Shown: positions 2,136 to 31,042 of the stretch, piece after piece
How positions within the stretch are numbered: position 1 is the stretch's first letter
Layout of the letters: each line of letters begins with the position of its first letter
The notes under the pieces: generated by a model
The model's input: the letters and a program-made list of their open reading frames with translations, nothing else
The model's database searches: none
What the model was told of the DNA's origin: nothing
DNA from: Bellilinea caldifistulae
Lineage (GTDB): Bacteria > Chloroflexota > Anaerolineae > Anaerolineales > Anaerolineaceae
Length of the DNA stretch: 32,000 nucleotides
Direction: 5' to 3'
Assembly (NCBI RefSeq): GCF_001306055.1
Contig: NZ_LGHJ01000001.1
Location: forward strand, 1 to 32,000
Program-made: the position numbers and the translations under genes

Positions 2136-2855
2136 ATGGCAAAGCACGGAAAGAAATACTTAGCCGCCAGTGCAAAAATCTCTCCCGGCAAGTCTTACAC
2201 GCCTGAGGAAGCGCTTGCTCTGGCAAAAGAAACTTCGATTACCAAATTCGATGCTACAGTGGAAGTTCACCTGCGCATGGGTTTGGACCCACGTCAGGCC
2301 GATCAGCAGGTACGCGATGTGGTCGTCCTGCCGCATGGCTTGGGCAAGACGGTGCGTGTGCTGGTCTTTGCCCAGGGTGAAGGGGCTGAAAAAGCCAGAG
2401 AAGCCGGGGCCGATTACGTGGCCGACAGCGACGAATGGATCACCAAGATTCAAAACGGCTTTACCGACTTCGATGTGGCAATTGCCACGCCGGACATGAT
2501 GAGCAAAGCCGGCCGCCTTGGGCGGGTGCTCGGCCCGCGCGGCTTGATGCCCAATCCCAAAGCCGGCACGGTGGTTCCGGCAGATGATTTGCCGCGCGTG
2601 ATTCAGGAAGCCAAAGCCGGCCGGGTTGAGTTTCGGCTGGACAAAACCGCCAACATTCACGTACCGATTGGCAAGGTGTCCTTCGACACCGATAAACTGT
2701 ACAACAACATGGCAGCCCTGATGGATGCAATCAAAAAAGCCAAACCGGCGGCTGCCAAGGGTTCTTACATCCGCAAGGTGACGGTTACCACCACGATGGG
2801 TCCCGGTATCCGCGTGGATGCAATCCAGGCCCAAAGCATGGCAATGAAGGAGTGA
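2136..2855 (+). CDS. rplA: 50S ribosomal protein L1
   Basis: [11 protein letters not shown]...[34 protein letters not shown]..., typical L1. Follows rplK. Confidence 0.95.
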
Positions 2856-2859
2856 AACA

Positions 2860-3057
2860 GGCAAATAACCTGATTTCCTGAAAAGTGAATATTCCCTGCA
2901 CCGTTGAAAGCAGGTGCCCCGCAAGGGGCTTAATATCCCGCCGAGGTGAGGACTTTTCCGCGAAGTTGAGGCTGCCTTCTGGCAGTGGTTAAAAGTCTTT
3001 GCCCGGCCAATGCAGGGCAAAGACTTTTATCTTAAGAAGAAAGGAGGTGAATCCTCG
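2860..3057 (+). promoter_or_regulatory. rplJ (L10) leader with attenuator-like hairpin
   Basis: A 200-nt untranslated gap before rplJ. Perfect hairpin AAAAGTCTTTGCCC (2991-3004) / GGGCAAAGACTTTT (3015-3028) followed by TATCTT. The position matches L10-leader autoregulatory RNAs. Confidence 0.45.
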
Positions 3058-3591
3058 TTGGCATTCTCAAAACAGCACAAAAACAAAATGGTTGCGCAGT
3101 ATGTGGAATGGCTGCGGCAGAGCCAGGGTGTATTTGTCCTGAATTACAACAAAATGACGATGAAGGACATTGATACCCTGCGCGCCAAAGCGCGCGAAGC
3201 CGGCGCTGAATTGCATGTCGTCAAGAATACCTTGATGAAACTGGCGCTGGAAGAAGTCGGCATTCAGGACAAATCGGTGTTCGATGGCGCTTCACTGGTG
3301 GGTTTTGCGTTCAGTGATGCGCCGGCGCTGGCCAAGGTGTTGAGCGATGCGACCGCCAAGTCCGAGATCTTTGCGATCAAGGGCGGCTATCTGGGGGCTC
3401 AGGCTCTCAGCGTTGAGCAGGTGAAAGCGCTCGCCGAGCTGCCGCCGCTGCCGGTCATGCGCGCCACGCTGCTGGGCACCATCTCGGCGCCGGCCTCCAA
3501 ACTGGTTCGCACCCTCGCCGAGCCCGCCCGTGGTCTTGCGGCAGTCATCAAGGCCTACTCCGAAAAGAGCGCTGCCCCGGCTGCTGCCTAG
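3058..3591 (+). CDS. rplJ: 50S ribosomal protein L10
   Basis: TTG at 3058 lies 8 nt after AAAGGAGGTG. Sequence VFVLNYNKMTMKDIDTLRAKAREAGAELHVVKNTL is L10-like. The track ORF start at 3010 lies inside the leader hairpin. Confidence 0.88.
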   Translation: MAFSKQHKNKMVAQYVEWLRQSQGVFVLNYNKMTMKDIDTLRAKAREAGAELHVVKNTLMKLALEEVGIQDKSVFDGASLVGFAFSDAPALAKVLSDATAKSEIFAIKGGYLGAQALSVEQVKALAELPPLPVMRATLLGTISAPASKLVRTLAEPARGLAAVIKAYSEKSAAPAAA

Positions 3592-15514: not shown

Positions 15515-15673
15515 TCTGGCAATGGGGTCAAGAAATTGGTAATGTCTGGATGAATTACAGCGGTCTGTGGCGGGTTTATCCCCCCGGCGTATTTGTTCTG
15601 GCGCAAATGAGCGCCGGTCAAAATGTGGTATGCTGAACCCACCAAGAAAATTCACCGGTCAATGGAGTTGAAT

Positions 15674-15862
15674 ATGAACACCTCACAACCCGAATGTGTT
15701 TACTGCGCTCGAAGCGCGCAGGAAGTTCCCCTCTTGTCCCTGCGCTTTCAGGAAACCCAATTCTGGATTTGCCCCCAGCACCTGCCCATTTTGATTCATC
15801 AGCCGGAGCGATTGAGTGGTAAACTGCCCGGCGTGGAAAATCTCGAACCCCACGAACATTAA
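15674..15862 (+). CDS. Small Cys-containing protein (CxxC...CPxH), unknown function
   Basis: MNTSQPECVYCARSAQEVPLLSLRFQETQFWICPQHLPILIHQPERL... The ATG lies 6 nt after GGAG (15664-15667), and a strong terminator follows. Confidence 0.5.
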   Translation: MNTSQPECVYCARSAQEVPLLSLRFQETQFWICPQHLPILIHQPERLSGKLPGVENLEPHEH

Positions 15863-15880
15863 GACAACCCTCACGCAATC

Positions 15881-15915
15881 AAAAGACTGCCTGTCATTGT
15901 ACAGGCAGTCTTTTA
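15881..15915 (+). terminator. Intrinsic terminator
   Basis: AAAAGACTGCCTGT-CATTG-TACAGGCAGTCTTTT, a perfect 14-bp stem ending in a T-run. Confidence 0.75.
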
Positions 15916-16033
15916 TATGGTAAACCTCACCCCCGCCTCAGCGAAAAGTGGGACTTTTTGGATGATGATTGTCTGTCTAATCATGATTTTTGCCACTATC
16001 AGGAAAGGCGCGCTTTTTATTAAGATAGGTGCA

Positions 16034-16498
16034 ATGTCAACAGCGGAATTTCGCAATTTTTCGATCTTTGAAGGGTTGAGCCCTGCCAAAATCGAGTGGC
16101 TGGCGAGCCAGTTCGAGCAGCAGTGGCTGCCTGCCAACCATACCATCTTCCGACAGGGCGATTCCGCCGATTATCTCTACCTTCTGGCTACCGGAAAGGT
16201 TATAATTCGATATAAGCCGTATGACGGCCCGCCGCTGACCGTGGCAACCATTCAGCCGGGTGAAATTTTCGGCTGGTCGGCGGTGCTGGGCAGGCACATT
16301 TACACCTCGGCAGCGGTGACTCTGGAACCTAGCCGCCTGTACCGCATTCTGGGCAGCCGTCTGCAAACCGTGTGTGATGAATGCCCGGAGACCGGGGCAA
16401 TGCTTTACCAGCGCCTGGCCAGGGTTGCCGGCGAGCAAAAAAAAACATTTGCATACCGAGAGCGAGTTGTTGCGGGTACTGACTTCCAATATGGATAA
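16034..16498 (+). CDS. Cyclic-nucleotide-binding-domain-only protein (Crp/Fnr effector domain, no HTH)
   Basis: FSIFEGLSPAKIEWLASQ...IFRQGDSADYLYLLATGKVIIR...GEIFGWSAVLG.. is the cNMP-binding beta-barrel pattern. The protein ends ~40 aa after it, with no DNA-binding domain. The start is uncertain (the track ORF opens at 15917, inside the terminator). Confidence 0.75.
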   Translation: MSTAEFRNFSIFEGLSPAKIEWLASQFEQQWLPANHTIFRQGDSADYLYLLATGKVIIRYKPYDGPPLTVATIQPGEIFGWSAVLGRHIYTSAAVTLEPSRLYRILGSRLQTVCDECPETGAMLYQRLARVAGEQKKTFAYRERVVAGTDFQYG

Positions 16499-16527
16499 AA
16501 ATGGGGATTGTTACCGGAGGATTGAAC

Positions 16528-16785
16528 ATGGGCGACGCTGAAATTCCTGCATACAGCATTGAGGAACAATTGCGCGGTCTGATCGAGCAATTGAGCGCCT
16601 ATATCGAAACTTACCACGGCGGTGAGGTGGAATATATCGGCTTTGATGGCAAAGTGGTCAAAGTGCGCCTGGGCGGGGCCTGTCTCGGCTGCCCGCTTTC
16701 ACCGGTGACCCTCAAAGGCTGGGTGGAAGGCACCATCAAACAATTCTTCCCCGAAATCCACGTTGAGGAAGAAAGCGCCTCATAA
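16528..16785 (+). CDS. NifU-like (Nfu C-terminal domain) Fe-S scaffold/carrier protein
   Basis: HGGEVEYIGFDGKVVKVRLGGACLGCPLSPVTLKGWVEGTIKQFFPEI contains the Nfu CxxC motif. The ATG at 16528 lies 7 nt after GGAGG. An alternative start is at 16501. Confidence 0.85.
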   Translation: MGDAEIPAYSIEEQLRGLIEQLSAYIETYHGGEVEYIGFDGKVVKVRLGGACLGCPLSPVTLKGWVEGTIKQFFPEIHVEEESAS

Positions 16786-16799
16786 AATTTCGGGCTGGT

Positions 16800-17216
16800 T
16801 CATTCCAGCCCGACTTCAATGTGTTCCTGATCCTCTTCGTCGTAGATATCCACAATCTGACCAATTTCGCCGGATTGGATCGCCTCCATAATTTGACCCA
16901 TCTCGACCTCGCCGATTTCCGGGGAGAAGCGGGCGCCTAATTTCATGCCGGTGTTCAGCACGGTAACCGGCAGGCGGATGTTGACGCGCACTTTACCGCT
17001 GCGTAAATCGGTGATGCGCACCCGCAGCCAGCGTGGCCGCGGCCGGATTGCCTCCCCCGGCGGAGGAGGTGGGGGTGGAGGCAGAGGGCCTTTTTTTTCG
17101 GGGGTGGCGCTGCTCTTTTCCAACGCCTGCAACAGGCGAATGCCCTCTTCGGGGGTGATTTTATTTTCCTCGATCAGTTTGAGGATTTTCAGTCGTTCTT
17201 CACTGCTTGCCGCCAT
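16800..17216 (-). CDS. Hypothetical protein: SHOCT-like N-terminal helix pair, poly-Pro linker, C-terminal beta-rich domain
   Basis: EERLKILKLIEENKITPEEGIRLLQAL, then PLPPPPPPPPG, then RWLRVRITDLRSGKVRVNIRLPV... Confidence 0.65.
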   Translation of the reverse strand: MAASSEERLKILKLIEENKITPEEGIRLLQALEKSSATPEKKGPLPPPPPPPPGEAIRPRPRWLRVRITDLRSGKVRVNIRLPVTVLNTGMKLGARFSPEIGEVEMGQIMEAIQSGEIGQIVDIYDEEDQEHIEVGLE

Positions 17217-24285: not shown

Positions 24286-24696
24286 TCAGGCGTGGTTTTC
24301 CTGTAAGATGGCAGCCCGCAGGTCTTCAACCACTTTTTGGGTGGAAGTGCCGGGGCCGTAGACAGCGCGCACGCCCATTGCCAGCAGGGCGGGGATGTCG
24401 CTTTCGGGGATGATGCCGCCGACAAAGACATGCACATGGCCCTGTCCGTTGGCGCGCAACAGTTCCAGCACGCGCGGCACCAGCGCCATGTGAGCGCCGG
24501 AGAGGATGGAAAGCCCCACCGCGTCCACATCCTCTTGTAAGGCGGCCTCGGCAATCATCTCCGGCGTTTGGCGCAGGCCGGTGTAGATGACTTCCATGCC
24601 GGCGTCCCGCAGAGCGCGGGCGACCACCTTGGCGCCGCGGTCGTGGCCATCCAAACCGGGTTTGGTAATCAGCACACGGATTTTACGTTCGGTCAT
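24286..24696 (-). CDS. Methylmalonyl-CoA mutase, C-terminal cobalamin-binding subunit
   Basis: [37 protein letters not shown] contains the DxHxxG B12-binding motif. 136 aa stand-alone domain. Confidence 0.9.
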
Positions 24697-24800
24697 TCGG
24701 TTTTGCCTCAGGGTGAAGTTGTTTCAATTATACCGCGTCCTGTCGTCAGACAATATCCCCTTATAAGGAAAGGAATAGTGTCATATCCGGCAGGTGACGG

Positions 24801-25490
24801 TTAACCCTGAGGGGGCGGTTCTTCCAGCAGGTCATCCGTGACCTCGGCGCCGGGCAGAAGGAATAAGTCGGGATTTTTCCACATATAGACCACCGCCCCG
24901 GCGCGGCTCTTGACCCCGATTTTTTGGTAAGCCATGGTTACATAGTTCTTAATTGTGCCGGGTTGGAGGGCAAGTTGTTCAGAAATTCGAGCGTTTTCAT
25001 ATCCCAGGGCAATCAACGTCAGCACCTGCCGTTCGCGATTGCTCAAAGGCGATCGCAGCGGTCGTTCCCGGAGAAAAGTGTCCAGCATCTCCGGCAGGGA
25101 AGTGAAATCAGTGCGGCCATCCAGTAAAAACTGGATAACCTTAGCCAATTTTTCCAACTCAATTTCCAGCGGCAGCCAGGCATGAATGGTGATACGCTGC
25201 ACGGCGCGCAGGATGACCGGCAGGCTGCTGTGGGGGGCGATCAGCAACGTCTTTGTGGCGGTAGGCAGGGGGGGAGCGGAAGCGTTCTGAGTCAGAGCAG
25301 CAAGGCGTGGTGCATCGAGGATCAGCACATCCGGTTCTGGCCGTTGGGAATCGGCAGCGAGGAACGAATCATCATCGAGAATGTGGTATTTGAAGGAAGG
25401 GAATTCTTCCTTCAGGAAAGCGATCAATCCTTTTTTCAGAAGCGGGACGGAAACGGCGATGCAGACCAGAGGGGGAAAGTTGTTCGCCAT
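24801..25490 (-). CDS. LuxR/GerE-family regulator with an atypical receiver-like N-terminal domain
   Basis: C-terminal LSNRERQVLTLIALGYENARISEQLALQPGTIKNYVTMAYQKIGVKSRAGAV is a GerE HTH. Start chosen at MANNF (AGGA 4 nt upstream). The N-terminal domain lacks the usual acidic pair after beta-1 (it reads CIAVSVP). Confidence 0.85.
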   Translation of the reverse strand: MANNFPPLVCIAVSVPLLKKGLIAFLKEEFPSFKYHILDDDSFLAADSQRPEPDVLILDAPRLAALTQNASAPPLPTATKTLLIAPHSSLPVILRAVQRITIHAWLPLEIELEKLAKVIQFLLDGRTDFTSLPEMLDTFLRERPLRSPLSNRERQVLTLIALGYENARISEQLALQPGTIKNYVTMAYQKIGVKSRAGAVVYMWKNPDLFLLPGAEVTDDLLEEPPPQG

Positions 25491-25568
25491 TCGATCCTTT
25501 AGAAAATGGTTCGTGGGAAAAAAGAACGCCGGTAAGTTTATGGTAAGGGAATCAATCCAATTTGTCAA
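25431..25568. repeat. Direct repeat copy 1 (luxR 5' end plus upstream leader)
   Basis: About 138 bp, nearly identical (3 substitutions and 1 indel by eye) to 30904-31042. Confidence 0.9.
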
Positions 25569-25579
25569 TAGGGGTCAAA

Positions 25580-25599
25580 GTCATGTCAGGGGGCATGAC
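25580..25599. promoter_or_regulatory. Palindrome GTCATG-N8-CATGAC, copy 1 (candidate LuxR-type operator)
   Basis: GTCATGTCAGGGGGCATGAC, 32 nt upstream of a TATGAT -10-like hexamer (25632-25637) and 75 nt upstream of the module-A start codon. Confidence 0.45.
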
Positions 25600-25674
25600 C
25601 GGCGGTACTTCCCCTTTGTTCTTCAATTTGCTATGATGGCTTTGGTGAAAAAACGCAGAAGCAGAGAGGACGAT

Positions 25675-26529
25675 ATGTTCAGAAAACCCTATATTGTTTT
25701 GATTGCGCTGCTGGTGCTGGCAGCGGGTTTCATCTTGTTGATGGCACAAAAACCGGGTGAGGCAAAAAGTGAAGCGGCAGCGCAGACGGCTTTACCAACG
25801 GCTGTGGGAGAAGTGATCCAAGCCGCGCAAAGCGTTACACCGGTCATGGCCGCAGAAGTCGAAATGAGCGCGGCACAGGTGCGCGAGGCTTTGGTCGAAC
25901 GGGCAAAGCAACATCTCTTCAAACCCGGCTGGGTACTGGTGCGCGAAACTTTCACCGATTTCACCAAGGCCGAAGACTACGTTGTGGTTCCGATGAACGG
26001 ACAAATCATCCCCAAGAACTGGGTGCGCGAAACATGGTTGTTGGTGGATGAAGGTTTACAGGTTAAGGCAATGTTTTCCGAGAAAAAAATGCTGGATGAC
26101 ACAATCGTATCTTTGACGCGTGCCAGTGATGGATCTTTTGGAAAGGCGTTTAATGCCGAAATTCTTCCAAATGTTCAGATTGACTACTGGACGAAAACCG
26201 AAACCTTGGACCGACTTATTGAGCAGGGTGAGACTCAAAGGGTTGTTTTTCAATTTCTTTCGCTGGATGGAAAGCGGGTTTTGTATGCAGTTTATTCAGA
26301 CGTTTTTCCCTCCCCTATTCGTATGGAGGGGCTGAAACAACCCCTTATTTCGTTTAGCACTGAGGATCATTATGATTGGGAAATCGGTCAGTTTCTGTTC
26401 AGTGAGGGGTGGGCAACGCTGACAGATGGCAACCGCCAACTTGTTGGTCGGCTAGAAATGAGCATTGATTGCAATTCCACCCCACCGGATGCGGTTTTGG
26501 AGGGGTTTTCAATCACGCCGGAGGAATAA
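25675..26529 (+). CDS. Module A gene 1: membrane-anchored (signal-anchor) extracytoplasmic protein, unknown family
   Basis: ATG follows GAGAGGA. MFRKPYIVLIALLVLAAGFILLMAQ is a single N-terminal hydrophobic helix. Paralogous to 27109-27963. The track ORF start at 25381 overlaps luxR and is rejected. Confidence 0.8.
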   Translation: MFRKPYIVLIALLVLAAGFILLMAQKPGEAKSEAAAQTALPTAVGEVIQAAQSVTPVMAAEVEMSAAQVREALVERAKQHLFKPGWVLVRETFTDFTKAEDYVVVPMNGQIIPKNWVRETWLLVDEGLQVKAMFSEKKMLDDTIVSLTRASDGSFGKAFNAEILPNVQIDYWTKTETLDRLIEQGETQRVVFQFLSLDGKRVLYAVYSDVFPSPIRMEGLKQPLISFSTEDHYDWEIGQFLFSEGWATLTDGNRQLVGRLEMSIDCNSTPPDAVLEGFSITPEE

Positions 26530-26981
26530 TGAAATCAAAATCAATCTCATTTAGGGTTTTCACGATTGTCTTTCTATTTCTGGTAATCCTGTCAGGTGAG
26601 GTTATTGCAGCCGGCGGCAGCAAAACCGTTTCCGGCTCGATATCGGGTATCACCTATTTTGCAGAAAAAAGTGTGTACACCTATACTACCTCATGGACTG
26701 CGTCTGCCAAAAGTAGCGCAATTTCAAACATCTCTATCATTGGCTATACCTGGTGGACGGTTTATCGAATCTGTACCGATGATGTCTATGCTTATTACTC
26801 TCGTTCTGAGAATCAAAGTAACCGCAACAGTAACTACTTTGAAGACATAAAATGGATTGACCACTATCAATATTCCTGCAATCCCGGATATTTTGTTAAG
26901 AAGTCAGCCAGTCTCGGTAATCACCAGTTTACGTTGAATTCTACCCATCAGTACCCTTATGTGGAATATGTCTATCCTTAG
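26529..26981 (+). CDS. Module A gene 2: small secreted Tyr/Ser/Thr/Asn-rich protein, unknown family
   Basis: TAATG stop/start overlap with gene 1, and GGAGGA upstream. Signal peptide MKSKSISFRVFTIVFLFLVILSGEVIAA. The mature part is paralogous to 27960-28415. Confidence 0.78.
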   Translation: MKSKSISFRVFTIVFLFLVILSGEVIAAGGSKTVSGSISGITYFAEKSVYTYTTSWTASAKSSAISNISIIGYTWWTVYRICTDDVYAYYSRSENQSNRNSNYFEDIKWIDHYQYSCNPGYFVKKSASLGNHQFTLNSTHQYPYVEYVYP

Positions 26982-27014
26982 AAGAGAATAGGACCCTTTT
27001 TCGCTATGTTCAAA

Positions 27015-27034
27015 GTCATGGTGGGGGGCGTGAC
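27015..27034. promoter_or_regulatory. Palindrome copy 2 (GTCATG-N8-CGTGAC)
   Basis: Same position relative to TATGAT and the module-B start as copy 1. One arm has a single mismatch. Confidence 0.4.
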
Positions 27035-27108
27035 CGGCGGTACTTCCCCTTTGTTCTTCAATTTGCTATGATGGCTTTGGTGAAAAACGCTGAAGCAGAG
27101 AGGACGAT

Positions 27109-27963
27109 ATGTACAGAAAACCCTATATTGTTTTGATTGCGCTGCTGGTGCTGGCAGCGGGTTTCATCTTGTTGATGGCACAAAAACCGGGTGAGGCAAA
27201 AAGTGAAGCGGCAGCGCAGACGGCTTTACCAACGGCTGTGGGAGAAGTGATCCAAGCCGCGCAAAGCGTTACACCGGTCATGGCCGCAGAAGTCGAAATG
27301 AGCGCGGCACAGGTGCGCGAGGCTTTGGTCGAACGGGCAAAGCAACATCTCTTCAAACCCGGCTGGGTGATGGTGCGCGAGACGCTGACGAACTTCACCA
27401 ACCGCGAGGAATATGTTGTGGTTCCAATGAACGGACAAATCATCCCCAAGAACTGGGTGCGCGAAACATGGTTGTTGGTGAATGAGGACTTAAAAGTAGT
27501 GGCGGGTTATTCTGTTGTAAAAAGTTTTAAAGGAGAACCTCTACTTGAGACAATCGTCAGTGATGGTTCTTTTGGAAAGATGATCCAACCAGAAAATTTA
27601 CCCGGCTGGCAAGAGGAACACTGGCTATATCTTGACCTGTTCGAAAGAATGATCGAGTACGATGGCGGTAAAAGCGCAACTTTCTCCCTTATCGAACAGG
27701 GTGCCAAGCGTTTGCTGCGGGTCTTTTCCCAAGATTTCTATCCCTCTGCCGGTTATACCGAAGGGGTGGAAGGAGCCATTGTTTCATCCTTTTCAACCTC
27801 CTATTATGACTGGGAAACTGGTCAATTTTTGCTCAGCGAGGACTGGGCAGTTTTGACCGATGGCAGTCATAAACAAATCAATCGCCTCGAGGTGGAAGTT
27901 GAATATTCACCTGCCCCGCCTGCCGAGGTAGTTGCCCGATTCACCGGCGAGATAAAGCAATGA
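27109..27963 (+). CDS. Module B gene 1: membrane-anchored extracytoplasmic protein, paralog of 25675-26529
   Basis: The first 87 residues are identical to module A except F2Y. The C-terminal ~150 aa share only landmarks (SDGSFGK, YDWE.GQFL.SE.WA.LTDG). Confidence 0.8.
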   Translation: MYRKPYIVLIALLVLAAGFILLMAQKPGEAKSEAAAQTALPTAVGEVIQAAQSVTPVMAAEVEMSAAQVREALVERAKQHLFKPGWVMVRETLTNFTNREEYVVVPMNGQIIPKNWVRETWLLVNEDLKVVAGYSVVKSFKGEPLLETIVSDGSFGKMIQPENLPGWQEEHWLYLDLFERMIEYDGGKSATFSLIEQGAKRLLRVFSQDFYPSAGYTEGVEGAIVSSFSTSYYDWETGQFLLSEDWAVLTDGSHKQINRLEVEVEYSPAPPAEVVARFTGEIKQ

Positions 27964-28415
27964 TCACAAACAGGCATCAAAAGCGGCTTATTCTATGGCT
28001 GGCTTTTATTTTGCTGGTCACCCAATTTGGTGAGAGTTCGGCTGGTGGCGGCAGCAAAACCGTTTCCGGCTCCATTTCGGGTATCACCTATTTTGCAGAA
28101 AAAAGTGTGTACACCTACACCAATACATGGACTGCGTCTGTCAAAAGTAGCACCGTCACAAATATCTCAATTATTGGCTACACCTGGTGGACGGTTTATC
28201 AGATTTGCACAAACGATGTTTATTCTTACTATATTCGGTCAGAGAATAAAAATAACCGAAATAGCAGTTATTACGAGGACTCAAAATATGTTTATTACAA
28301 AGATTACCCATGTCCAGGTGGTTCGTATATCAAAAAAACAGCCAGTCTCGGTAATCACCAGTTTACGTTGAATTCTACCCATCAGTACCCTTATGTGGAA
28401 TATGTCTATCCTTAG
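27960..28415 (+). CDS. Module B gene 2: small secreted Tyr/Ser/Thr/Asn-rich protein, paralog of 26529-26981
   Basis: ATGA overlap with gene 1. The signal peptide is unrelated to that of module A, while the mature ends are identical (GGSKTVSGSISGITYFAEKSVYTYT ... ASLGNHQFTLNSTHQYPYVEYVYP). Confidence 0.78.
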   Translation: MITNRHQKRLILWLAFILLVTQFGESSAGGGSKTVSGSISGITYFAEKSVYTYTNTWTASVKSSTVTNISIIGYTWWTVYQICTNDVYSYYIRSENKNNRNSSYYEDSKYVYYKDYPCPGGSYIKKTASLGNHQFTLNSTHQYPYVEYVYP

Positions 28416-28448
28416 AAGAGAATAGGACCCTTTTTCGCTATGTTCAAA

Positions 28449-28468
28449 GTCATGGTGGGGAGCATGAC
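28449..28468. promoter_or_regulatory. Palindrome copy 3 (GTCATG-N8-CATGAC), orphan
   Basis: GTCATGGTGGGGAGCATGAC. Similarity to the module leader ends ~15 nt later, and the solo LuxR gene lies ~170 nt downstream. Confidence 0.4.
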
Positions 28469-28640
28469 CGGCGGCACTTCCTATAGCCGACCTTTTTTGC
28501 TATAAAAAAATTAGTCTTTTTTATATCTCACCGTGGGTGGAAAATCGCCCCCTTGAGCAAGAGGATTTTTCCTTCATTTTTTGAATTTTTATTCACCCCC
28601 CGTTTGCGCTAAAAGACAAAATTGGAACTAAAGTTGGCGA

Positions 28641-28853
28641 ATGGATATAAAACTGAGATTGACCCAACGGGAGAAGCAAATACTGGAATTGTTGTGCGAG
28701 GGAAAGACCAATTCTCAAATTGCGAGAAACTTGCAAATTTCCCCAAAAACGGTCGAATCTAATCTGACCAGAGTATATCGAAAATTGGGCGTGAACAATC
28801 GCACTGCAGCCGTTGCAGCATATTTTGTTGAATTAAATCGAGAGAAAAATTAA
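28641..28853 (+). CDS. Stand-alone LuxR/GerE HTH protein (70 aa, no sensor domain)
   Basis: LTQREKQILELLCEGKTNSQIARNLQISPKTVESNLTRVYRKLGVNNRTAAV is a complete GerE-type HTH. The gene is AT-rich. Confidence 0.8.
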   Translation: MDIKLRLTQREKQILELLCEGKTNSQIARNLQISPKTVESNLTRVYRKLGVNNRTAAVAAYFVELNREKN

Positions 28854-28940
28854 GGGAAATCCTTATATTGAAGTTTGTCTTGAGAGAGGGTATATTTAAA
28901 TCGGCCGAATGGGTGCAAGAGAGAAAAGGGGAGGGAAGTA

Positions 28941-29117
28941 ATGAATAAGAGAAACCTTTTTAATCTTGGAATGATTGGTTTGGTCTTTATGGTGGGCTTT
29001 TCCGTGGTGGGGGGAGCGCCGTTACCCGATGGGGGAATTCGTGATGAAACCTGCCGGGAAGGGTTATCTGAATTTGTGACCGAAGCGAAGGATTGCTCAA
29101 ATCGGCATTACGATTGA
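28941..29117 (+). CDS. 58-codon ORF encoding a signal peptide plus a short tail, probably the detached 5' end of the CHAP gene
   Basis: GGGGAGGG lies upstream. MNKRNLFNLGMIGLVFMVGFSVVGGAPLPDGG...; TGA at 29115-29117. The +1 frame is already open from 29080 and runs into the CHAP ORF. Confidence 0.45.
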   Translation: MNKRNLFNLGMIGLVFMVGFSVVGGAPLPDGGIRDETCREGLSEFVTEAKDCSNRHYD

Positions 29118-29184
29118 TCAGCCGCAGCCGTTTGTTGACCCGCAGGCGATTATCCGGCGTTATACGGCTTGGTGTTCGCAAGGA

Positions 29185-29889
29185 TTGCTGGATTTGGATA
29201 TCTGGCAAACGATGGGAATGACAATGGATGAGTGGATGAAATGGTATGAAGATACCCGTCAGCCGTTGGGAACGGTTGCGTCTCGCATCACTATCGGTGA
29301 AATTGAAGCGGTTCGTTATGAAGAATCCACTCTTTGGACGACCCTGTGGAGCGGAGAAAAATATATCTATCGCTTGTGGTACACCCATAGGGGAGATCAA
29401 TCGGGTGAGGAATTTTATAAAAGGGTCTTGAACTCCGTTGGTTTTTTGAATGAGGAGCCGATCAAGGGGGAAGATGCATCCCAATCGTTTCAAGGTTTAT
29501 CGCTGGAAGGCTTTGCCACAGTCAATCCTCTTGTCACAACCTGTTGTGGATATACATCGCCGGGTAATCCCTTTGAGTGCTGTAACAACAAGGGAAATTG
29601 TGTCTGGTGGGTGTATTACAAATATGGTTATGTGCCGTTCCGAGGAGATGCAGGTAAGTGGTATGGACAAGTGCCCGATTACCCGGATTGGCGCAGGGGA
29701 AGATATCCGAATAGAGGGATGAATATCGCGTGGTGGTCAGGATCTCCTGGTCACGTTGCCTTTATAGCGAACTATCCTGGAGGAGGGACAGTAACCATAA
29801 CCGAGATGTTGATTTGTACATCCTGCGGAAGGACGCGTAATTTGAGTGTAACCGCTCCCGAAGGATACATGTGGACAATTTACAACTGA
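29185..29889 (+). CDS. CHAP-domain cysteine peptidase/amidase (peptidoglycan hydrolase-like), lacking its own signal peptide and an obvious start
   Basis: The C-terminus NKGNCVWWVYYKYGYVPFRGDAGKWYGQ...GMNIAWWSGSPGHVAFIANYPGGGTVTITEM fits the CHAP pattern (Cys...His...polar). The frame is open from 29080, and the only starts are TTG at 29185 and ATG at 29209. Confidence 0.7.
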   Translation: MLDLDIWQTMGMTMDEWMKWYEDTRQPLGTVASRITIGEIEAVRYEESTLWTTLWSGEKYIYRLWYTHRGDQSGEEFYKRVLNSVGFLNEEPIKGEDASQSFQGLSLEGFATVNPLVTTCCGYTSPGNPFECCNNKGNCVWWVYYKYGYVPFRGDAGKWYGQVPDYPDWRRGRYPNRGMNIAWWSGSPGHVAFIANYPGGGTVTITEMLICTSCGRTRNLSVTAPEGYMWTIYN

Positions 29890-29932
29890 GCAATTCGGTT
29901 TTAATGATTTTCTCTTTTGGAGGTCAGGGCAG

Positions 29933-30676
29933 ATGATAAAAAGCATTGTTCGTCAGCTTCTTCTGATTGCAGGGTTGGTTTTTATAAGCAATTGCAGGGG
30001 AGAAATTGACAACTTCCCTTCTACTCCAATTGAGACTCGAAATTTGCCAACAATTACCCCCTCATCAGAGATAAAATCGACACCTCCCCAAATGGTTGAT
30101 GAAATTGAAACGGTCATTCCACTCAAACCCACCCGAATTCCAACCCCTACGGAAGAGGATGAAATATTTTTCCAAGAATATTGTGGCAAGGAATTTGTCT
30201 CTGCTGTGAAGCTCCTTCCTGAAAGGGAAATAAATTGGTTTCGATATAACCACTACCTTTACCCTTTCTCAATAGCATTCCCCTCGGATTGGAATCTCAT
30301 AGAATGTGATAATTCTATATACCTGTTTCCGGATAGTGAGCCTTCGATTCGTCTGGCAGTCCGTTTCAAATACTCGAATGAAAAGAAACATATCTTAAGA
30401 ACCGGCGTGCCGGCGGGTGACGCGGTTCATGTTGGCACGGTGCAGTTCGTCGGTCAAACCATTCGCAAGACAATCATCCGCTACGAGGGCAAGGATAAAG
30501 TTGTCCTCTACGGCTACAAAGAGGATTTGCCCTATCAAATCCCGGTCGGTAATCTGATCTTTACCATCAGTCTGGATGATGTTGGTTCTCGTTATTATGA
30601 GGATGTCGAGCTTTCGCCCGAAATTCAACAGCTGGCCGATGCCATTGTCGAAAGCATTCGGCTGACTTCGCCATAG
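29933..30676 (+). CDS. Secreted protein or putative lipoprotein, unknown family
   Basis: GGAGG lies upstream. MIKSIVRQLLLIAGLVFISNC is a signal peptide with an imperfect lipobox, followed by a Pro/Thr-rich linker. Composition switches from AT-rich to GC-rich near 30400, inside the ORF. Confidence 0.7.
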   Translation: MIKSIVRQLLLIAGLVFISNCRGEIDNFPSTPIETRNLPTITPSSEIKSTPPQMVDEIETVIPLKPTRIPTPTEEDEIFFQEYCGKEFVSAVKLLPEREINWFRYNHYLYPFSIAFPSDWNLIECDNSIYLFPDSEPSIRLAVRFKYSNEKKHILRTGVPAGDAVHVGTVQFVGQTIRKTIIRYEGKDKVVLYGYKEDLPYQIPVGNLIFTISLDDVGSRYYEDVELSPEIQQLADAIVESIRLTSP

Positions 30677-30787
30677 GCATGAGCGATTCGATAAACTTCG
30701 TGCGCCGAATTGGCCATGAAGTGCTTTGGCTGTTTTGCCGCCCTCGTGTGTGGAAAAACATGTCGAACGTCGCTGGCACGCCCCGTT

Positions 30788-30964
30788 TTACTGTTTCATG
30801 ACCAGTCCCGTTGCACTGGCAAATATCAACGCTCCCATCGCTACTGGCGGGGCGAGCATGCCAGGGCTGCAGTGTGTGCCTCCACGAAAAAGGTGAACAA
30901 TCCTGTTTTTCAGAAGTGGGACGGAAACGGCGATGCAGACCAGAGGGGGAAAGTTGCTCGCCAT
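30788..30964 (-). pseudogene. Truncated relic of a luxR paralog (N-terminal ~20 codons conserved, then divergent, no HTH)
   Basis: MASNFPPLVCIAVSVPLLKN... compares with MANNFPPLVCIAVSVPLLKK... in the intact gene. It stops after 58 codons. Confidence 0.7.
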
Positions 30965-31042
30965 TCGATCCTTTAGAAAATGGTTCGTGGGAAAAAAGAA
31001 CGCCGGTAAGTTTATGGTAAGGGAATCAATCCAATCTGTCAA
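30904..31042. repeat. Direct repeat copy 2 (luxR 5' end plus upstream leader)
   Basis: Aligns with 25431-25568. The flanks diverge on both sides. Confidence 0.9.

Follow-up and report, generated by a model that had tools for sequence, protein, structure and literature searches.

A tandem array of two two-gene units lies at positions 25575-28443 of a 32,000-nt stretch of DNA from Bellilinea caldifistulae (contig NZ_LGHJ01000001.1, positions 1 to 32,000; the stretch is called the window, and its locus W). Each unit encodes a membrane-anchored protein (gene 1, g1) and a small secreted protein (gene 2, g2), and the units differ in the type of their cores (a in unit 1, b in unit 2). Comparison with related loci (L001-L027) led us to conclude that the array arose by an old duplication on which gene conversion, restricted to certain segments, was superimposed. 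This evolutionary account is very probably correct. For the biochemical role of the products, a cognate pair acting outside the cytoplasm appears to be the most likely reading. Taken jointly, the explanation of evolution and function has a probability of roughly 0.6.

Structure of the Tandem Array

The array in the window comprises the following features.

25575-25674, plus strand: leader of unit 1, with the palindrome GTCATG-N8-CATGAC at 25580-25599 followed by CCGGCGGTACTTCC, the box TGcTATGAT at 25629-25637, and the ribosome-binding site GAGAGGA at 25664-25670
25675-26529, plus strand: g1a, 284 amino acids, with the anchor at residues ~4-24, a disordered Ala/Glu/Pro linker at ~25-57, and a ~215-residue domain with the a-type core
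26529-26981, plus strand: g2a, 150 amino acids, coupled to g1a by TAATG, with a predicted Sec-type signal peptide ending in ...EVIAA (next residues GGSK), a mature part of 122 residues, and 2 conserved Cys
27010-27108, plus strand: leader of unit 2, with the palindrome at 27015-27034 (1 mismatch) and TGcTATGAT at 27064-27072
27109-27963, plus strand: g1b, 284 amino acids, first 87 residues as in g1a except for F2Y, with the b-type core
27960-28415, plus strand: g2b, 151 amino acids, overlapping g1b by ATGA, with a signal peptide unlike that of g2a and with a mature N-terminus and final 24 residues identical to those of g2a
28444-28521, plus strand: third operator/promoter copy, with the palindrome at 28449-28468 and TGcTATAAA at 28498-28506, 5' of the gene for a small GerE protein

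A first-pass annotation, made by a model from the letters of the window, had described two ~1.43-kb units and a third leader copy, and a repeat finder and a global alignment agree with this structure. The repeat finder returned direct repeats at an offset of 1434-1435 nt (25649-25948 versus 27083-27382, 98% identity), a second direct repeat pair (26898-27047 versus 28332-28481, 96%), and three leader copies starting at 25575, 27010, and 28444. In the global alignment, unit 1 (25575-27009) and unit 2 (27010-28443) were 74% identical. Identity was ~100% in 25695-25905, 42-63% in 26055-26590, 92-97% in 26617-26680, and 100% in 26917-27009. Within the cores it was 40-55%. A uniform divergence profile, which had been named beforehand as evidence against an exchange of segments, was not seen; the profile is strongly mosaic. 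The longest run identical between the units measures 255 nt (25680-25934). A rough estimate for such a run by chance, ~1443 x 0.74^255, gives ~1e-30. Because 26% of the sites differ overall, chance is not a plausible source of it.

The block-wise conservation reported earlier was found again in nearly all details. F2Y is the sole difference in the first 87 residues of g1a and g1b, the tail of gene 1 is diverged (the stretch of 42-63% identity), g2a and g2b have different signal peptides and share an identical mature N-terminus and identical C-terminal 24 residues, and both coupling overlaps (TAATG and ATGA) are present. The perfectly identical junction between the units, given as 119 bp, extends to 122 bp (26905-27026 versus 28339-28460). 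An identical block encoding MNGQIIPKNWVRETWLLV exists as had been stated, but it is 54 nt long (25993-26046) and not ~65 nt.

Two-unit arrays with ~50%-identical cores were found again in the independent assemblies L004, L005, L008, L009, L011, L021, and L023. This recurrence counters the concern, raised in the first-pass annotation itself, that the duplication might be an assembly artifact.

Gene Conversion Superimposed on an Ancient Duplication

All units from all loci were aligned and compared block by block. Synonymous divergence (dS) and the ratio of nonsynonymous to synonymous divergence (dN/dS) are pairwise Nei-Gojobori estimates, and trees were built by neighbor joining. The g1 cores and the g2 centers form two types. 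Between genomes, a and a are 90-96% and b and b are 83-88% identical, and a and b share ~50%. For the leader and the first 87 g1 codons, the relation is reversed, with 97-100% identity within a genome and 82-95% between genomes. Between paralogs, dS was 0-0.07 in the g1 N-terminal block, but at least 1.7 or saturated in the g1 cores. Between orthologs, dS of the N-terminal block was 0.09-0.99 (the near-identical pair W/L009 excluded), and this block is therefore not unusually constrained. In the trees, the N-terminal segment clustered by genome and the core clustered by a/b type. Types a and b formed sister clades nested within outgroups of 27-34% identity; therefore, the duplication is older than the divergence of these lineages (flanking dS 0.5 to >1).

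These sequence comparisons give good support to the view that gene conversion within genomes, acting repeatedly, produced the identical blocks. Equally well supported is an ancient duplication whose a and b cores have been kept distinct since before the lineages split. The first-pass annotation had interpreted the locus as a case of cassette exchange or gene conversion, and the reversal of identity within and between genomes, the split in dS, the conflict between trees, and the tract described in the next paragraph support it in this. It had also held that the pattern is not that of a simple old duplication. The duplication is in fact old, as the ancient a and b sister clades show, and conversion was layered on top of it.

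A fresh conversion tract of ~46 nt separates W and L009. The flanks of these two loci are 99% identical, and their copies of unit 1 differ at 20 sites. As many as 15 of the 20 differences fall within 25935-25980, and L009 carries the unit-2 state at 15/15 of them. Site 25756 is G in both W copies and A in both L009 copies.

Could a plain old duplication under uneven purifying selection, without any conversion, have left the same pattern, or could it be an artifact of assembly? Functional constraint can in principle conserve protein blocks, and some related metagenome-assembled genomes have a single unit, which may reflect trouble with repeat assembly. However, the blocks are identical also at synonymous sites, in the noncoding leader, and at the junction, and the same blocks diverge normally between genomes. 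The clustered tract between the near-identical strains W and L009 and the occurrence of arrays with 50%-identical cores in at least seven independent assemblies also argue against these explanations. On the combined grounds of dS, tree topology, and the repeated finding of the array in independent assemblies, both were rejected, and their probability is virtually nil.

Conversion within genomes has homogenized four segments repeatedly: the promoter and leader, the first ~87 g1 codons, the region of the g2 mature N-terminus, and the g2 3' end together with the inter-unit junction. Ortholog dN/dS was 0.1-0.5 for the g1 cores and 0.11-0.22 for g2, indicating that both the a and the b paralogs are under purifying selection. 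A search of 5.8 billion protein clusters yielded 14 g1 and 6 g2 homologous clusters, all from Bellilinea or Chloroflexota metagenome-assembled genomes, and in these clusters and all loci examined a and b were the only core types. Relatives thus do carry alternative 3' cores attached to the conserved 5' block, as the first-pass annotation had proposed to check, but these cores are of types a and b alone. With only two core types and the dN/dS values above, the likeness to polymorphic surface or effector loci that had been suggested was not sustained.

Unit Rearrangement and Exchange between Lineages

The units occur in the order a-b in W, L004, L005, L009, and L021 and in the order b-a in L008, L011, and L023 (three independent assemblies), and L001, L003, L006, and L007 are single-unit loci. 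L003 is equivalent to L004 lacking unit a, and its breakpoint falls in the leader. The flanks of L001 (a only) match those of L007 (b-type g1), a close relative. The identical blocks may have been substrates for unequal crossing-over, which would account for the one-unit loci and for a-b versus b-a orders. They may also have served as substrates for segment replacement between lineages.

Synonymous divergence bears on this second possibility. Between W and L004, five housekeeping flank genes had dS values of 0.47-0.56, against 0.10 for luxR, the divergent regulator gene of the locus, and 0.06 for the g1a core; this contrast extends the exchange suggested earlier to exchange between lineages. 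The other values for this pair were 0.11 for the g1 N-terminus, 0.12 for g2a, 0.37 for the g1b core, and 0.25 for g2b. Between W and L008, dS of luxR (0.93) exceeded that of the flanks (0.36-0.68). From the contrasts between luxR and the flanks in the two pairs, it follows that the ancestry of the island is mosaic. The sequences indicate that luxR and segments of unit a were exchanged between the lineages of W and L004.

Leaders and Putative Operators

Each unit is preceded by a AAGTCATG-N8-CATGACCGGCGGTACTTCC palindrome. At ~30 nt 3' of the palindrome are TGcTATGAT as an extended -10 box and GAGAGGA as a ribosome-binding site. The palindrome occurs 3 times in the window, compared with 0.11 expected occurrences. 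It is kept before every unit in all Bellilinea-type loci and is found again before the gene after the last unit, where the operator copy persists even though the next gene differs (DUF2690 in L008, a 235-residue protein in L001 and L012). The third copy in W had been taken for a leader-only stub. Being kept with different cargo and having a TGcTATAAA box of its own, it is better read as a third operator/promoter copy for the next downstream gene.

Both an adjacent regulator with a GerE-type helix-turn-helix (HTH) and a conserved putative operator before the promoters were found, as in LuxR/GerE-regulated operons. We infer that the divergent LuxR-type regulator controls the island as a single regulon. 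Each unit would have a promoter with the palindrome as a putative operator, probably bound by this regulator. The leader is not among the known RNA elements, since a scan of 24500-29500 against Rfam gave no matches, and a terminator scan revealed no convincing terminator between the units.

Gene 1 Encodes a Tethered Protein with a Tentatively LolA-like Domain

The g1 protein consists of a basic N-terminus, a ~20-residue hydrophobic helix, a disordered Ala/Glu/Pro linker of 30-40 residues, and a domain of ~215 residues. A full hidden Markov model (HMM) search of 1.84 billion representative proteins yielded 103 clusters of this family at E <= 1e-3, which are alike in size and architecture. All aligned members have the basic N-terminus and the ~20-residue hydrophobic helix or, in the case of P0028, a lipobox-like VSSC in place of the anchor, and an extracytoplasmic location is predicted on this basis. 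Among 68 diverse members, invariance or near-invariance is confined to W86, W121, L73, G142, G238, and G252. This restriction to Trp, Gly, and Leu suggests a role in binding and not in catalysis.

When g1, g2, and the neighboring proteins were scanned against Pfam, NCBIfam, PADLOC, and PHROGs, neither g1 nor g2 had a meaningful match. Not one of the 68 g1 family members (0/68) matched any Pfam model at E <= 0.01, LolA, LolB, LppX_LprAFG, MucB_RseB, and DUF4367 included. Sub-threshold matches to DUF2486, DUF7028, and DUF6769 were dismissed as lying in the low-complexity linker or as non-significant. The earlier statement that the products belong to no recognizable family holds for Pfam, NCBIfam, PADLOC, PHROGs, and PDB sequences, and the profile searches that had been recommended revealed no clear homology of g1 or g2 to a characterized housekeeping family.

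The AlphaFold2 (AF2) model of g1 has a predicted local distance difference test (pLDDT) score of 74.6 overall. Most 10-residue blocks of the domain score 84-94, with dips to 66-75. The model shows the order helix, 6 strands, 2 helices, 5 strands, helix. When it was compared with the PDB by Foldseek, DUF1329, LprG, LppX, LolA, and LmcA ranked first, with probabilities of 0.85-0.99. For DUF1329, LprG, LppX, and LolA, the probabilities were 0.91-0.99 and the TM-scores 0.22-0.41. On the strength of this model, the domain is tentatively LolA/LprG-like.

Another reading is that g1 is a lipid or glycolipid carrier of the LprG/LppX/LolA kind in envelope biogenesis, with g2 as an unrelated co-transcribed gene and the duplication providing two carriers for different cargo. 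The best structural neighbors of g1 are lipid-carrying half-barrels, MacB-type ABC or YknX-type adaptor genes occur in the neighborhoods of two distant g1 relatives, and distant g1 relatives without g2 exist. The structural match is weak, however, no transporter is linked in the Bellilinea loci, and the tight translational coupling and the conservation of g1 with g2 in four lineages favor a joint function. We therefore regard a carrier function as very improbable.

Gene 2 and Its Pairing with Gene 1

Ser makes up 16% of mature g2 (122 residues), Tyr 13%, and Thr 9%. Two Cys are conserved in it, as is a GNH(Q/E)F motif. By sequence prediction, g2 is a Sec-secreted, disulfide-bonded protein. The g2 profile gave only non-significant matches to PDB sequences (E >= 3.5); those to alpha-synuclein were dismissed as compositional noise.

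Its composition could be taken to mean that g2 is a Tyr/Ser-rich structural subunit of a fiber, sheath, or adhesive layer, with g1 as the tethered anchor or nucleator. TapA-TasA of Bacillus and CsgB-CsgA, the latter under the LuxR-family regulator CsgD, are such accessory-plus-subunit pairs. The Ser, Tyr, and Thr content fits this idea, as do a predicted beta-rich structure that models poorly and the long flexible g1 tether, which would suit holding something off the membrane. The divergent LuxR/GerE-type regulator has no Pfam receiver-domain match, and CsgD is likewise not known to have one. On the other side, g2 has no repeats, no amyloid or pilin profile matched it, its PDB matches are non-significant as mentioned, no sortase, signal-peptidase, or secretion genes are linked, and the maintenance of two diverged subunit-anchor pairs would go unexplained. 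A structural role of this kind is quite improbable.

The adjacency of g1 and g2 is kept far beyond Bellilinea, and g2 was found beside g1 in four divergent lineages. In L020 (g1 30% identity), a distant g2 homolog begins 4 nt after g1, and in L026 (27%) the two genes overlap. In L016 (34%), an insertion sequence (IS) element separates g1 and g2; its DDE transposase gene (DUF4096/DDE_Tnp_1, 2645-3412) lies exactly between the g1 homolog P0021 and the g2 homolog P0020. Immediately 5' of the distant pair in L020, positions 2-1264 encode a protein with Peptidase_C39_2 and TPR. The g1 core type and the g2 type always occur together, a with a and b with b. In L007, the b-type g1 is followed by an unrelated secreted protein of 185 residues. 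In L018 (6001-11761), the place of g2 after the g1 homolog P0022 (31% identity) is taken by a secreted staphylococcal-nuclease-like (SNase) protein; a MacB/FtsX-type ABC system with a YknX-like adaptor follows, and a divergent PadR regulator lies upstream.

Proposed Function and Its Weighing

We propose that g1 is anchored in the membrane and faces outward, presenting its tentatively LolA/LprG-like binding domain on the flexible linker. On the outer side of the membrane, g1 and g2 would be cognate partners, with g2 being bound, held, or regulated by the tethered domain of its own g1. Types a and b may differ in specificity and have a regulatory and anchoring front end in common. This binding model is tentative, and we give it rather less than even odds. 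The LolA-like superfamily comprises lipoprotein carriers, glycolipid carriers, and anti-sigma components, and its member GerS, a LolA-like lipoprotein in a monoderm, binds and activates the amidase CwlD (bioRxiv 10.1101/2025.01.13.632879). With GerS-CwlD as a precedent, a LolA-like protein in a monoderm can act via a secreted protein partner.

Several observations weigh against the proposed account. The g1 profile found nothing below E = 1 among PDB sequences, and the Foldseek alignments of the g1 model are weak (E 2.5e-4 to 2e-3, TM-score 0.21-0.41, root mean square deviation 9-14 A). The AF2 model of g2 is beta-rich but poor (pLDDT 51.6), and a Foldseek search with it found no significant structural neighbors, the model being too poor to use. 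Distant g1 relatives stand alone (L013, L027) or beside unrelated secreted proteins (L018, L007), and g2 is thus not an absolute requirement for g1. The strict a-a and b-b linkage may just reflect a lack of homology between the cores and not co-adaptation. Binding of the regulator to the palindrome is inferred only. Finally, the single-unit loci come from metagenome-assembled genomes and could result from repeat collapse, as in the case of L003, which equals L004 without unit a.

The linkage of types also bears on a different role for the pair, in which g2 is a Sec-secreted, bacteriocin-like antibacterial protein and g1 the tethered immunity protein that neutralizes it on the surface of the cell. 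The a and b types would then be toxin-immunity specificities, and strains with one or both would differ in killing and resistance. The co-occurrence of g1 core and g2 types is in keeping with this, and close strains vary in how many units they have and of which type (L001 with a only; L007 with a b-type g1 and another partner). The module sits in a low-GC, recombining accessory island near a secreted CHAP hydrolase, segments have been exchanged between lineages, one relative (L018) has a secreted nuclease in the partner position beside a MacB-type ABC exporter, and the joining of a conserved front end to divergent cognate back ends resembles polymorphic toxin loci. Against these points stand the occurrence of only two types in very large databases, dN/dS values (0.1-0.5) without a sign of diversifying selection, and the lack of any match to toxin, immunity, or defense profiles. 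Moreover, the gene that would confer immunity precedes its partner, is larger, and has diverged more; g1-like genes also exist without any partner, and the Bellilinea loci have no dedicated export or processing genes. A toxin-immunity function thus appears unlikely.

A broader variant is that g1 and g2 constitute a Sec-dependent self/non-self or antagonism system of filamentous Chloroflexota that has not been described before. In it, g2 would be the effector or recognition protein, g1 a LolA-fold receptor or immunity protein, and a and b the specificities, with the converted front ends allowing strains to acquire, drop, or exchange specificities through homologous recombination. We consider this decidedly unlikely. 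The cognate extracytoplasmic pair, in which g1 would bind or regulate g2, is the reading that we prefer. If it is true, g1 would be a further LolA-fold protein in a probably monoderm lineage that acts via a protein partner, like GerS with CwlD.

Genomic Setting of the Island

The remaining features of the island in the window are the following.

24801-25490, minus strand: divergent LuxR/GerE-family regulator, GerE HTH at E = 8e-16, in the same position in every related locus
28641-28853, plus strand: small GerE/LuxR protein of 70 amino acids, HTH alone, GerE at E = 3.4e-21, variable island cargo
28941-29889, plus strand: disrupted gene for a secreted CHAP-domain peptidoglycan hydrolase, CHAP at E = 1.5e-8, island cargo

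Orthologs of the LuxR/GerE regulator have 222-235 residues; the mechanically called open reading frame (ORF) in W extends to a TTG at 25568. A promoter-like site for this gene lies on the minus strand at 25568-25540. Its N-terminal ~165 residues matched no Pfam model, receiver models included.

A scan of a genome collection with a narrow alignment found 2 loci, a metagenome scan 5 further loci, and a word-indexed protein search with a 68-sequence profile reached 2 distant relatives. The related loci are syntenic, with fpg, prs, an acetyltransferase gene, an aminoacyl-tRNA synthetase gene, meaB, and a gene for a B12-binding protein on the left flank and, in most of them, guaA on the right flank. 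The island always starts with the divergent GerE/LuxR regulator, continues with one or two g1-g2 units, and ends in variable cargo. One cargo set consists of the small GerE protein, the secreted CHAP hydrolase, a lipoprotein-like protein, and a 321-residue protein; a second consists of a DUF2690 protein and a 231-residue anchored protein; in other loci cargo is nearly absent. The G+C content in W is 39-50% in the island (~25000-31000) and 55-67% in the flanks. No relatives were found in a search of viral contigs, and an all-against-all BLASTP comparison showed g1 and g2 to be unrelated to the other island proteins.

The gene content 3' of the g1-g2 units differs in almost every related genome. 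The small GerE gene is missing in L001, L006, and L008. The CHAP hydrolase gene is intact in the 99%-identical strain L009 (11269-12333; 354 residues with a signal peptide). In W, a ~97-nt deletion and a frameshift have left a 58-residue signal-peptide stub and an ORF of 234 residues, and in L004 (9829-10935) the gene is broken by an in-frame stop; L003 was also compared. Decay of the island cargo is thus independent between strains, as the CHAP gene in W and L004 illustrates. The b-a-order loci L008 (9443-9874) and L011 (2623-3054) encode a small secreted Cys-rich DUF2690 protein instead of the small GerE protein and the CHAP hydrolase. A second unannotated anchored family (231-235 residues: anchor, Ala-rich linker, and Cys-containing domain) is encoded in L001 (9498-10205), L007 (9752-10459), and L008 (9928-10623). 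Its genes lie 3' of the g1-g2 units, each with its own operator copy. In L008, a few kb 3' of the island, positions 15611-16855 hold a type III CRISPR-associated region made up of a Cas_NE0113/GerE fusion followed by Cas10/Csm1.

Comparison with Known Systems

The module as defined here combines a tentatively LolA-like tethered protein with a new family of small secreted partners, and it is found in Anaerolineae, a poorly studied group of abundant bacteria. Like the members of the LolA-like superfamily (LolA/LolB/LprG/LppX/RseB/GerS), g1 is predicted to be extracytoplasmic and membrane-tethered, and at least one member of its family is a putative lipoprotein. The hallmark of the superfamily is an unclosed antiparallel barrel or half-barrel with a helix as plug or lid; the g1 model shows an N-terminal helix and a long antiparallel sheet interrupted by two helices. 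Unlike these proteins, g1 has no profile similarity to the Pfam and PDB members, it has an uncleaved anchor and a disordered linker of 30-40 residues, and its partner g2 falls into no known family. The likeness of g1 to LolA-like proteins lies in the predicted fold only.

The CsgD-csgBA and TapA-TasA systems share with the locus a LuxR/GerE-family regulator with an atypical N-terminal domain, divergent from an operon for secreted envelope proteins, and the combination of a tethered accessory protein with a small secreted beta-rich protein. In contrast to them, g1 and g2 have no sequence or profile similarity to CsgA/B, TasA, or TapA, and g2 has no repeats. An assembly of g2 into fibers is pure speculation.

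Polymorphic toxin-immunity loci with orphan modules include those of contact-dependent inhibition (CDI; cdiA-CT/cdiI) and Rhs. As in these loci, divergent 3' cores follow a conserved 5' block and are accompanied by a co-varying neighbor gene, and modules stand in tandem with short identical recombinable borders in an accessory island with exchange between strains. The g1-g2 array differs in that it has two core types only, evolves under purifying selection, and has Sec signals on both products; both units have full promoters and complete genes, and neither is a 5'-truncated orphan. No toxin domain was detected in g1 or g2 (Pfam, NCBIfam, PADLOC), and no secretion-system genes, those of types 5, 6, and 7 (T5, T6, T7) included, were found within +/-8 kb in any related locus. 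Of the traits that define polymorphic toxin loci, neither many core types nor a toxin domain, a secretion system, or diversifying selection was seen. The locus resembles such loci in architecture and fails their defining tests.

Partial concerted evolution by gene conversion is familiar from tufA/tufB, from opa and pilE/pilS of Neisseria, and from the mycobacterial PE/PPE and esx paralogs. The array described here agrees with these cases in that identity within a genome exceeds identity between genomes in defined tracts, synonymous sites are homogenized, segment trees conflict, and tracts are visible between close strains. Unlike tuf, it shows no homogenization of whole genes; conversion is limited to the regulatory region, the 5' end, and the borders. 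Unlike pilS and opa, it has no large repertoire of silent cassettes making variation, and its two diverged cores are stable. The locus is an unusually clean natural case of segment-restricted concerted evolution, with a single conversion event caught between strains whose flanks are 99% identical. One recombination process keeps promoters, anchors, and borders identical, and two functional cores persist. It is also a plausible source of the variants in copy number and order and of the exchange between lineages. The finding is solid and only moderately surprising. The process is already known in kind, and what is new here is that the diverged cores stay intact and only the front end and the borders are homogenized.

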